Positions 37,079 to 39,384 of a DNA stretch of 64,000 bases are shown here, in pieces. The DNA comes from Acutalibacteraceae bacterium (lineage in GTDB: Bacteria > Bacillota > Clostridia > Oscillospirales > Acutalibacteraceae). The position numbers were made by a program, and so were the translations under genes. How positions within the stretch are numbered: the stretch's first letter is position 1; the number at the start of each line of letters is the position of its first letter. Under the pieces are notes generated by a model. The model worked only from the letters and a program-made list of their open reading frames with translations. It did no database searches and had not been told where the DNA came from. The stretch spans positions 629 to 64,628 of the forward strand of contig JAZOCW010000032.1 in NCBI GenBank assembly GCA_045596705.1. The letters run 5' to 3'.

Positions 37079-37555
37079 TTATTTGCCTTCTTTTACCTGC
37101 TTACCCGTGAACGGGTCTATATACTCTACCAATGACATTTGATCGTAAGATATATCTTCCTGTAATTGATTTCGTATGTATTCTGCAATTGCTTTTTTAT
37201 TTCTTCCTACTGTATCTACATAATATCCTCTACACCAAAAATGCCGGTTTCCGTATTTATATTTCATGTTGGCATATTTCTCAAAAATCATTAAACTGCT
37301 TTTTCCTTTGAGATATCCCATTATTTGTGATACACTATACTTAGGCGGTATGGATACCAGCATATGTATGTGGTCTTTGCAGGCTTCTGCTTCTATTATT
37401 TCTACCTGCTTATACTCACATAATTTCCTAAGCATTATTCCTATATCTGCCTTTATCTTTCCATAGATTACTTGGCGGCGGTATTTTGGTGCAAAAACTA
37501 TGTGATATTTGCAATTCCATTTTGTGTGTGCTAAACTATCTGTGTCAAGTTTCAT
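37079..37555 (-). CDS. tnpA: IS200/IS605-family Y1 (HUH) transposase TnpA
   Basis: 158 aa. MKLDTDSLAHTKWNCKYHIVFAPKYRR carries the HUH-type HIV motif, and a second H.H is in DHIHMLVSIPP. Confidence 0.9.
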   Translation of the reverse strand: MKLDTDSLAHTKWNCKYHIVFAPKYRRQVIYGKIKADIGIMLRKLCEYKQVEIIEAEACKDHIHMLVSIPPKYSVSQIMGYLKGKSSLMIFEKYANMKYKYGNRHFWCRGYYVDTVGRNKKAIAEYIRNQLQEDISYDQMSLVEYIDPFTGKQVKEGK

Positions 37556-37563
37556 ACTTGATT

Positions 37564-37620
37564 CCTCCTTCGTCTTTTTGTTGTGGTTGGCAAACCCTCT
37601 TCTATTTTAGACGAAGGAGG
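37564..37620 (-). promoter_or_regulatory. 12-bp perfect hairpin sequestering the tnpA RBS
   Basis: cctccttcgtct at 37564-37575 pairs with agacgaaggagg at 37609-37620. On the mRNA the 3' arm contains GAAGGAGG, 8 nt before the ATG. Confidence 0.7.
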
Positions 37621-37693
37621 ATTCTTTTGCTACTCATAGCTAAAGCTTTTTGGAACTACCGGCATTGCCGGTAGTATTCGTTACACAATAAAA

Positions 37694-37721
37694 TAAAAAA
37701 ACCGCCTTTCGGCGGTTTTTT
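37694..37721 (-). terminator. intrinsic terminator overlapping the dehydrogenase stop codon
   Basis: Stem aaccgcc/ggcggtt with long flanking A and T runs. Confidence 0.8.
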
Positions 37722-38751
37722 AAAAGCATCTTTCCAATCTTTGTTTTTTACAGTGGTCTATCTTTCCGCAATGGTAACAAAGCTCATTTTTTGCGGTGCC
37801 TGAAGATTCTATTTCACATAGATTTTCTATTGTGGTTTCTGCAATGTTTTCAAGCGCTTCTTCGGTCAAAAAGGCTTGGTGAGAAGTTACTATAACATTG
37901 GGCATTGAGATAAGACGGGCAAGAATATCATCATTTATTATATGACCCGAAAAATCTTCAAAAAAGACATCTGATTCTTCTTCGTAAACATCAAGGCAGG
38001 CGGCACCTATCCGGCGTTGCTTTATACCTTCAAGCAGAGCCTCGGCATCGATCAGCGCACCGCGCGAGGTGTTTATTATTACCACACCTTTTTTTAGAGT
38101 TTTTATAGTTTCGGTATTTATCATATGCCGAGTTTCCTTGGTCAGCGGGCAGTGAAGAGAAATTATATCACTTTCTTTAAGCAGCTGCTCGAGCGAAACA
38201 TAATTAATGTCGCTGTCCGTCACAGGATATTTGTCATATGCAATAACGTTAATTCCGAAACCGCGGCAGATATCAATAAACACCCTGCCTATTTTTCCGG
38301 TACCGATAACACCTACAGTCTTGCCGTGCAGGTCAAAGCCGGTCATTCCGTTAAGACTGAAATTAAAGTCTCTTGTGCGGATATATGCCTTGTGTATACG
38401 GCGTATGGAGGTCAGCAGCATTGCCATTGCATGCTCTGCAACGGCGTAGGGAGAATATGCAGGAACATGAACAACGTGCACCTTTTTGAAGCAGTGCTTA
38501 ATATCTACATTATTATATCCTGCACAGCGAAGTGCAATAACACCTATTCCCATTTCATAAAGCTTGTCTATAACGTTGGCATTTACGGTATCGTTTACAA
38601 AAACGCAGACCCCGTCACAGCCTGCTGCCAGACCTACTGTGTCTTCATTCAGTTTGGTCTCGTAAAACTTGAAAGTAATTCCCTTTTCCTTGCTTAATTT
38701 TTCAAAAGAAGGGATATCATAAGGTTTGGTATCAAAAAAAGCAATTTTCAT
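37720..38751 (-). CDS. D-isomer-specific 2-hydroxyacid dehydrogenase (D-lactate dehydrogenase-like) with a Cys/His-rich C-terminal tail
   Basis: 343 aa with the NAD-binding motif GVIGTGKIGRVF and the R...E...H catalytic pattern (TSHQAF). The last ~20 aa are ELCYHCGKIDHCKKQRLERCF. Confidence 0.8.
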   Translation of the reverse strand: MKIAFFDTKPYDIPSFEKLSKEKGITFKFYETKLNEDTVGLAAGCDGVCVFVNDTVNANVIDKLYEMGIGVIALRCAGYNNVDIKHCFKKVHVVHVPAYSPYAVAEHAMAMLLTSIRRIHKAYIRTRDFNFSLNGMTGFDLHGKTVGVIGTGKIGRVFIDICRGFGINVIAYDKYPVTDSDINYVSLEQLLKESDIISLHCPLTKETRHMINTETIKTLKKGVVIINTSRGALIDAEALLEGIKQRRIGAACLDVYEEESDVFFEDFSGHIINDDILARLISMPNVIVTSHQAFLTEEALENIAETTIENLCEIESSGTAKNELCYHCGKIDHCKKQRLERCF

Positions 38752-38765
38752 AATTTTCTCCGGTC

Positions 38766-39080
38766 TTAGTTTTTAAGAAGATCTAAAAGTGCATTCTTAG
38801 GCTTAAAGCCGATAGAAGTTCCGACTATCTTTCCGTTTTTAAAAGCTAAAACGGTAGGAATACTTTCTATGCCGAAGGCGTTAGCGAGCTGCGGCTCATC
38901 GTCGACATTTACCTTGCCTACCTTTATTTTACCCTCGTTTTCGGAAGAAATTTCTGCAAGTGTCGGGGCGAGCATACGGCAGGGGCCGCACCAATCAGCC
39001 CAAAAATCGAGCAAAACGGGTGTTTGGGAATTGATAACTTCATTTTCAAAATTTGCCTGTGTTACGGTGATCTCAGCCAT
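38766..39080 (-). CDS. trxA: thioredoxin
   Basis: 104 aa with the WCGPC active site. Confidence 0.9.
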   Translation of the reverse strand: MAEITVTQANFENEVINSQTPVLLDFWADWCGPCRMLAPTLAEISSENEGKIKVGKVNVDDEPQLANAFGIESIPTVLAFKNGKIVGTSIGFKPKNALLDLLKN

Positions 39081-39092
39081 AATAATTCTCCT

Positions 39093-39290
39093 TTATTTTG
39101 ATTTATAGTATAGTAAGCAGTGGCAAAAGCCTTCAAAATCTGCATCCTTTATTTGTTCGCGAAATTCTTTGCACATACATTTGTTATCTTCGGTTTTTTC
39201 GCGCCTGCAGGGGCAGTATCCGCCGGATTTTTTAAGCCCCTCTTTTATAACCTTTACGATCTCTTTATCGGGGTTAAGGGTAACCTTCAT
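39093..39290 (-). CDS. ferredoxin-thioredoxin-reductase catalytic-subunit-like small protein (65 aa)
   Basis: Three CxC pairs are present as CPC-x9-CMC-x15-CHC, reminiscent of the FTR beta chain (CPC..CPC..CHC). An extended -10 TGtTATAAT and an RBS lie upstream. Confidence 0.6.
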   Translation of the reverse strand: MKVTLNPDKEIVKVIKEGLKKSGGYCPCRREKTEDNKCMCKEFREQIKDADFEGFCHCLLYYKSK

Positions 39291-39384
39291 ATTTTTATCC
39301 TCTCTTATTTTTACTACAATATATATTATAACACAAAAGTTATAAAAAAGGAAAAAATTATATTATAAAAATGATAGGTTTGCC

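Follow-up and report, generated by a model that had tools for sequence, protein, structure and literature searches.

A 64,000-nt stretch of DNA (the window) from a metagenome-assembled genome of an Acutalibacteraceae bacterium (1.04 Mb, 63% complete) carries a compact three-gene operon on its minus strand. The operon encodes a small relative of the catalytic subunit of ferredoxin:thioredoxin reductase (FTR; gene 1), a thioredoxin (gene 2), and a D-lactate dehydrogenase (D-LDH; gene 3) that ends in a cysteine-rich C-terminal tail (Table 1). A preliminary description of the window had proposed that these genes form a bacterial counterpart of the chloroplast chain, in which a ferredoxin-linked thiol switch controls a fermentative dehydrogenase, and had kept a metal-binding tail as a fallback. 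We read the locus, with moderate confidence, as a lineage-specific juxtaposition of two parts, namely a conserved module of the small FTR-like protein and thioredoxin and a widespread D-LDH with a four-cysteine tail.

Table 1. Features of the operon, with positions counted over the whole 64,000-nt stretch
Feature	Position	Strand	Details
Mini-FDR (FTR-catalytic-like) gene, gene 1	39290..39093	minus	65 aa
Thioredoxin gene, gene 2	39080..38766	minus	104 aa, WCGPC
LdhA-type D-lactate dehydrogenase gene, gene 3	38751..37720	minus	343 aa
Four-cysteine C-terminal tail of the dehydrogenase	37723..37779	minus	residues 325-343, C-x2-C-x5-C-x7-C-F
Extended -10 element TGtTATAAT upstream of gene 1	39333..39325	minus	read from sequence
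Intrinsic terminator	37721..37696	minus	11-bp stem, 5 GC pairs, then T-run

The gene layout of the preliminary description was confirmed on the sequence: the three genes are separated by spacers of 12 and 14 nt, and each is preceded by a Shine-Dalgarno sequence (GGAG or GAGAGG). The extended -10 element and the terminator, which overlaps the TAA stop codon of the dehydrogenase gene, were also found as described. TGtTATAAT is a putative promoter element of the operon that was missing from the output of a consensus promoter scan because its -35 region is weak. A scan of the operon region against Rfam returned no riboswitch or leader RNA family.

The small FTR-like protein and its thioredoxin

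Gene 1 encodes a member of the FTR-catalytic family. Within this family it most resembles the ferredoxin:disulfide reductase (FDR) type, and we refer to it and its short homologues as mini-FDR. Its six cysteines, as read from the sequence, are arranged as CPC(26-28)-x9-CMC(38-40)-x15-CHC(56-58). The protein scored 26 bits against the PF02943 (FeThRed_B) profile, above the gathering cut-off of 22, and 30.5 bits in a six-frame search of the genome with the same profile. Similar proteins of 65-70 aa make up more than 2,100 clusters, mostly from Clostridia; most of these have a precomputed PF02943 match and several carry the annotation 'ferredoxin thioredoxin reductase catalytic beta chain'. A search of 1.84 billion representative proteins yielded 835 matches, the best 150 of which were close relatives, many with miscalled extended starts, that added no distant links. 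In an alignment of 35 mini-FDR sequences, C26, C28, C56, H57, and C58 were invariant and C38 and C40 were at least 90% conserved, the conserved core of the family reading GGYCPC...EF...FEG.CHC.LYYK.

A single-sequence phmmer search of the 65-aa protein against the PDB gave chance matches only, and a family profile was needed instead. This profile matched the FDR of Methanosarcina acetivorans (4tpu, E 4e-5) and the glutaredoxin-FDR fusion of Desulfotalea psychrophila (7pwe, E 0.0035), in both cases with all three CxC pairs (CPC, CxC, and C(H/Y)C) aligned. The match to the classical FTR catalytic subunit (FTRc) 2pvd was not significant (E 6.8) because the middle cysteine pair sits elsewhere. The AlphaFold (AF2) model of gene 1 had a pLDDT of 95.4, and a Foldseek search with this model returned FDR or FTRc structures as all of the top 10 PDB matches (TMq 0.56-0.68). 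A VIA-align search of 48,161 chains, run without Foldseek as an independent check of the fold, gave Z scores above 5 only for 7pwe (6.5), 4tpu (6.4), and 1dj7 (5.4), with the next best match at 2.3. The model superimposed on 7pwe with an rmsd of 2.0 Å over 62 of its 65 residues, and on the FDR pair with 2.0-2.3 Å. The FTR-like identity suggested in the preliminary description, which had named the PF02943 comparison as its check, is thus borne out by the profile score, the fold matches, and the correspondence of all three CxC pairs. So is its remark that the protein is much shorter than the FTR catalytic subunit and differently spaced.

Compared with the solved FDRs (4tpu and 7pwe), which are its best matches by both profile and fold, mini-FDR likewise lacks a variable subunit and has a thioredoxin-fold partner. 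It differs from them in size (65 aa versus 173 and 196 aa), in having no fused rubredoxin or glutaredoxin domain, in the middle pair (C-M/I-C versus CPC), in the third pair (CHC, as in plant FTR, versus CYC), and in the spacing of the pairs (x9/x15 versus x14/x13), and its partner is a separately encoded, canonical WCGPC thioredoxin. With the classical plant and cyanobacterial FTR it shares the Pfam family, the core fold seen in 1dj7, six cysteines in three CxC pairs including CHC, and a span of 33 residues from the first to the last pair. Classical FTR is arranged as CPC-x16-CPC-x8-CHC, whereas the middle pair of mini-FDR is shifted, and mini-FDR is about 45 residues shorter than the classical catalytic subunit. 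No match to the variable subunit (PF02941) was detected at E <= 1 in the window's genome, an absence that is not proven at 63% completeness. Gene 1 thus combines a profile match covering the CxC pairs, no detected variable subunit, and an adjacent thioredoxin-fold partner, as expected of the FDR type, and shows neither the variable subunit nor the x16/x8 spacing of the classical heterodimeric FTR. The profile, fold, and PF02941 results together identify it as a bare catalytic core with neither a second domain nor a variable subunit, shorter than every solved member of the family (107-196 aa).

Our literature searches for FTR-like or PF02943 proteins in Clostridia did not find the 65-aa form described. 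The family itself is known and mini-FDR is annotated as part of it, but this minimal form is apparently unstudied. A same-genus relative (G001) encodes a second, divergent mini-FDR paralogue (L028:1498-1683; ~44% identity) with CPC rather than CMC as the middle pair and a loop before CHC that is 4 residues shorter. Comparable short-loop forms also occur elsewhere (P0384).

Gene 2 encodes, by its sequence, a canonical thioredoxin with a WCGPC active site, as the preliminary description had stated: it scored 127.8 bits against TIGR01068 (cut-off 96.8) and matched PF00085 with E 6e-31. The part of the genome that is assembled (63%) contains no other match to PF00085. In an alignment of the thioredoxins of the module, W30, C31, P33, and C34 were invariant. 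Among 301 genomes of the host's order that are at least 90% complete, mini-FDR was found in 90, and outside the order it was found in 3 genomes of a phylum sample of ~400. We examined the neighbourhoods of 40 mini-FDR loci from many genera of the order, and in 28 of them mini-FDR has a thioredoxin gene as an immediate same-strand neighbour, a proportion (70%) far above chance for a gene present in 1-3 copies per genome. Clustering of the neighbours around these loci, based on crude gene calls, gave thioredoxin as the only recurrent neighbour. In the set of related genomes, mini-FDR was present in 15 of 41, with a thioredoxin gene directly downstream in 4 of the 15 and a thioredoxin-like gene nearby in 2 more. 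Genes 1 and 2 are a conserved pair that we read as a module for thiol reduction. FDRs are reported to reduce thioredoxin-like partners with ferredoxin, according to the statement in PMC6262447 that cites Kumar 2015 and Wei 2015. The thioredoxin partnership is further argued by the natural glutaredoxin-FDR fusion 7pwe, a Rosetta-stone precedent. A complex prediction for mini-FDR, a [4Fe-4S] cluster, and thioredoxin had a median score of 0.24 against a mark of 0.32, which counts neither way for binding.

Some further redoxin genes were noted in the course of this survey. In two genomes (L066:2698-3339 and L083:2692-3342), mini-FDR has a canonical thioredoxin on one side and, on the other, a protein of 213-216 aa. 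Part of this protein resembles thioredoxin (27-31% identity to that of the window), and it may be a second substrate. The window's genome also encodes a TrxB-like flavoenzyme that scored 319 bits against the 343-bit cut-off of TIGR01292. Its active site reads CAVC and it contains GGGNSA, but the HRR motif for the NADPH 2'-phosphate is missing. It starts 2 nt after nrdD, the class III ribonucleotide reductase gene (L007:1486-3884, contig C21, outside the window), which appears to be fused to a C-terminal glutaredoxin/NrdH-like domain with a CPNC motif. From these sequences, the nrdD-fused redoxin and the TrxB-like enzyme look like a dedicated redoxin/reductase pair for the anaerobic ribonucleotide reductase, the flavoenzyme possibly being a ferredoxin- or NADH-dependent reductase.

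The dehydrogenase and its four-cysteine tail

Gene 3 matched both the 2-Hacid_dh and 2-Hacid_dh_C domains, and its best solved relatives were the fermentative D-LDHs 4cuk, 5z20, 5z1z, and 5z21 (E 1e-104 to 9e-100). These enzymes, including LdhA of E. coli (5z1z), P. aeruginosa (5z20), and F. nucleatum (5z21), are homologous to gene 3 over residues 1 to ~325 and share with it both domains, the GxGxxG NAD-binding motif, Asp173, and the Arg/Glu/His set. In the alignment of dehydrogenases, G150, G152, G155, D173, R230, E259, and H291 were invariant; Arg230, Glu259, and His291 are presumably the catalytic triad by homology. The domains and the D-LDH structures among the best matches agree with the earlier designation of gene 3 as LdhA-like, and its sequence identifies it as an LdhA-type NAD-dependent D-lactate dehydrogenase.

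In contrast to the solved LdhA enzymes, gene 3 has 19 extra C-terminal residues with four invariant cysteines. The preliminary description had placed 4 Cys and 2 His (Cys325, 328, 334, and 342; His327 and 333) beyond the usual end of the family, and this was upheld by alignment to the solved structures: these align only to residue 323-327 of gene 3, so residues 325-343 are a true extension. A canonical LdhA C-terminus, shortly after the '...NEL' motif, is not seen here, the protein running 19 residues further. Each of the 120 closest clusters, which are 74-100% identical to gene 3 and 341-356 aa long (in nearly all cases 341-344 aa), has the tail, with the consensus NELCY[HR]CG..[DE].C[KR]..R..[KR]CF. 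Residues C325, C328, C334, C342, and F343 were invariant in a 37-sequence alignment whose rows were picked for having the tail. The six cysteines of mini-FDR and the four of the tail show no or almost no variation among the aligned homologues, so that their presence is, judged by these alignments, not a matter of chance.

An LdhA-type gene was found in 118 of the sampled genomes of the order, and by the end of the alignment 73 of these were tailed, 39 tail-less, and 6 ambiguous. Among the fetched LdhA-type genes of the order, 78 of 96 end in a Cys-rich ...CF tail, and at least four cysteines are kept in 77 of these 78 tails. The tail occurs in a long form (C-x2-C-x5-C-x7-CF), a short form (C-x2-C-x5-C-x4-CF) that always has an upstream cysteine in G-x-C-x-NELC, and distant forms with longer loops. 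Across the 78 tails the spacing varies from 5 to ~9 residues between Cys2 and Cys3 and from 4 to ~8 between Cys3 and Cys4. The second cysteine is lost in 19 tails, 18 of which have the upstream cysteine ('G-x-C-x-N-E-L-C'), which is found in only 26 of the 59 tails that keep Cys2; with 18 rows read by eye and the cases related to one another, these counts describe a pattern rather than a statistic. Several losses or truncations within the clade mark the tail as an accessory element.

Two LdhA homologues (L149 in G150 and L153 in G324; 67-70% identity) end right after the first tail cysteine ('...NEIC*' and '...NLLC*'). Selenocysteine read-through was considered for these two and rejected, since the sequence after the stop codon is unrelated, and they are natural truncations. 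A distant homologue (L171 in G070; 53% identity) has a different tail with five cysteines in its last 17 residues and no ...CF end, which points to more than one origin of Cys-rich C-termini in the LdhA family. A scan of all open reading frames in the window's genome found no other protein with the tail of gene 3 and only the usual zinc tail of SecA. A literature search for the LdhA tail, which is borne by a variant of what is otherwise a textbook enzyme, did not find it described.

Judged by its sequence features, the tail more probably holds a tetrahedral metal site or a small Fe-S cluster than regulatory disulfides, because the number of cysteines is invariant despite variable loops, a CxxCG motif is present, the array lies at the extreme C-terminus, and the hosts are strictly anaerobic. 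CxxCG is a typical knuckle signature. The fallback of the preliminary description, a metal-binding tail, thus remains the better reading, at least four cysteines being kept in 77 of 78 tails while their spacing changes. The nearest functional analogues would be the tail of class II ribonucleotide reductase and the zinc tail of SecA, each of which, like the LdhA tail, is a short cysteine array at the extreme C-terminus of an otherwise metal-independent enzyme; neither is similar to it in sequence. The class II enzyme NrdJd binds zinc in its Cys-rich C-terminal tail, which influences both oligomerisation and the delivery of electrons (Loderer et al. 2017, PMC5704485). The class II tail has six cysteines, including a redox-active pair needed for turnover, whereas lactate dehydrogenase needs no thiol reductant.

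Linkage of the module to the dehydrogenase and the readings of the locus

Co-transcription of the three genes at this locus is real but is in itself no sign of a dedicated regulatory chain. Surveyed for co-occurrence, the tail, thioredoxin, and FTR-like gene were linked only here and in one sister genome, the only other place where the order mini-FDR, thioredoxin, dehydrogenase was seen. The sister dehydrogenase is 90% identical, and the same DUF3048, MntP, and FG-GAP genes lie upstream. The DNA identity between sister and window (~83%) ends exactly at the dehydrogenase stop codon. Elsewhere none of the 40 mini-FDR loci has a dehydrogenase gene within 2.5 kb, and in none of the 33 other genomes with both genes do they share a contig, those of the relatives always being on different contigs. 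Dehydrogenase homologues at 77-80% identity stand alone among sugar-utilisation genes. Of the 73 tailed genomes, each at least 90% complete, 34 have mini-FDR and 39 do not, compared with 13 and 26 of the 39 genomes with a tail-less LdhA (Fisher p = 0.23, uncorrected for relatedness). This mild co-occurrence is accounted for by the concentration of both mini-FDR and the close relatives of the dehydrogenase (E <= 1e-100) in the same order. The tail is thus common in LdhA homologues unlinked to the module, an observation that the preliminary description had itself named beforehand as one that would refute its proposal.

The flanks of the operon were also compared. In the window, the divergent DUF3048 gene lies upstream and an IS200 element (tnpA at 37555..37079) downstream; in the sister genome (dehydrogenase at L046:5035-6066), the stop codon is followed by a terminator, an opposite-strand tRNA gene, and an apparent dnaA start. 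The only Rfam match, to RF01405 (STnc490) at window positions 37567-37676 on the minus strand (44 bits versus a gathering score of 56, E 1e-6), maps to the 5' leader of tnpA in the IS200 element that directly follows the operon and is consistent with a structured IS200 leader or an antisense RNA.

The juxtaposition that we propose is built on the observed family, fold, gene neighbourhood, and tail distribution, and from these we infer the cluster, electron donor, and substrate of mini-FDR and the metal of the tail. By homology, Cys26, 38, 40, and 56 of mini-FDR would hold a [4Fe-4S] cluster and Cys28 and Cys58 would form the redox-active disulfide. Reduced ferredoxin would supply this protein with electrons one at a time for the reduction of the thioredoxin encoded by the neighbouring gene, and the thioredoxin would in turn act as a general reductant of disulfides in a strictly anaerobic host. 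Gene 3 would be a fermentative NADH-dependent D-LDH of a large clostridial clade with a C-terminal tetracysteine knuckle. This knuckle is most likely a site for a Zn or Fe ion or for a small Fe-S cluster and may have a structural, oligomerisation, or sensing role. The dehydrogenase gene would have joined the module, at its downstream end, in the ancestor that this species shares with one sister.

Several observations weigh against this account. The cluster, the ferredoxin donor, and the thioredoxin substrate of mini-FDR are predictions from sequence. As 12 of the 40 mini-FDR loci have no adjacent thioredoxin gene, the protein may have partners besides thioredoxin; and since the TrxB-like flavoenzyme of the same genome could reduce the same thioredoxin, mini-FDR is not necessarily its sole reductase. 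In the AlphaFold model of the whole dehydrogenase, computed from the 37-row alignment (mean pLDDT 77.9), residues 333-343 fall below 50, which lends no structural support to a knuckle, and four conserved cysteines with ligand swapping would also fit two regulatory disulfides. Finally, the operon is kept in two genomes ~17% apart at the DNA level, and there may be selection for co-expression of the three genes in this lineage.

The switch of the preliminary description, in which mini-FDR would reduce thioredoxin and thioredoxin would in turn reduce one or two disulfides in the tail, so that D-lactate fermentation runs only with reduced ferredoxin, appears quite unlikely. Co-transcription with short spacers and a single terminator, the preservation of this arrangement in the sister genome at ~83% DNA identity, the four conserved cysteines, and the somewhat higher frequency of mini-FDR with tailed enzymes all speak for it. 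However, that enrichment is not significant and both genes are concentrated in one order, more than half of the tailed genomes (39 of 73) have no mini-FDR, the two genes are unlinked at the other loci and in the other genomes compared, and the repeated loss or truncation of the tail within the clade shows that it is no fixed regulatory device. In the cytoplasm of strict anaerobes, stable disulfides with a regulatory role are also less expected. Chloroplast NADP-MDH, GAPDH-B, and CP12 have Cys-containing extensions, and the tailed enzyme shares an operon with an FTR-like protein and thioredoxin in this lineage only; the chloroplast extensions are not homologous to the LdhA tail, and a conserved association of the NADP-MDH type, between a Cys extension and a ferredoxin-FTR-thioredoxin system, was not found. 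An extended version, to which we give very little credence, would make the tail on most LdhA-type D-LDHs of the order a redox or oxygen sensor (an Fe-S cluster or a thioredoxin-reducible dithiol pair) that gates lactate fermentation by the ferredoxin/thioredoxin state, with mini-FDR as the smallest natural ferredoxin-dependent thioredoxin reductase and the readout route, and the operon formed for that reason.

The other two alternatives each concern one part of the locus. A redox-active Fe-S cluster in the tail, for example [4Fe-4S], that makes the D-LDH an oxygen, NO, or redox sensor or provides an electron-transfer contact is rather unlikely, even if it would suit four invariant cysteines at the extreme C-terminus, the substitution of the upstream cysteine for Cys2 as a ligand, and strictly anaerobic hosts rich in Fe-S proteins. 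The C-x2-C-x5-C spacing is known from WhiB-like proteins and the cluster loops of endonuclease III, and its occurrence in the first three tail cysteines is a lead, not a test. What speaks against such a cluster is the wide variation of the spacing between lineages, which zinc knuckles tolerate more easily than cubane sites, the lack of any profile or structure match to cluster-binding families for a tail that is modelled at low confidence, and the hydride-transfer chemistry of an NADH-linked enzyme with no obvious need for a one-electron centre. It is improbable, too, that the 65-aa protein is not a thioredoxin reductase but a small Fe-S/thiol protein with another partner, such as an electron donor, and lies beside thioredoxin genes only through a shared oxidative-stress regulon. 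Both the loci without a thioredoxin gene nearby and the small size of the protein, which lacks the regions used by FTR and FDR for dimerisation and ferredoxin docking, would fit such a role. In contrast, its six catalytic cysteines and the histidine of CHC are invariant or nearly so, its fold matches only disulfide reductases of the FTR/FDR family, and thioredoxin adjoins it far more often than chance allows.

On the reading of a conserved module beside a separate dehydrogenase, the bacterial chloroplast-type switch is not borne out by comparative genomics, and the locus draws attention to two common and uncharacterised elements, mini-FDR and the LdhA tail. The tail is widespread on a central fermentation enzyme, and whether it holds zinc, an Fe-S cluster, or disulfides would distinguish metal from redox control of lactate formation. 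Mini-FDR, present in ~30% of the sampled genomes of a large order of Clostridia from gut and rumen and usually located beside thioredoxin, would be the smallest known version of the FTR/FDR iron-sulfur disulfide reductases. If active, it would be a main path by which electrons from ferredoxin reach protein thiols in these anaerobes, and its very small size would suit it as a scaffold for work on the unusual [4Fe-4S]-disulfide chemistry.

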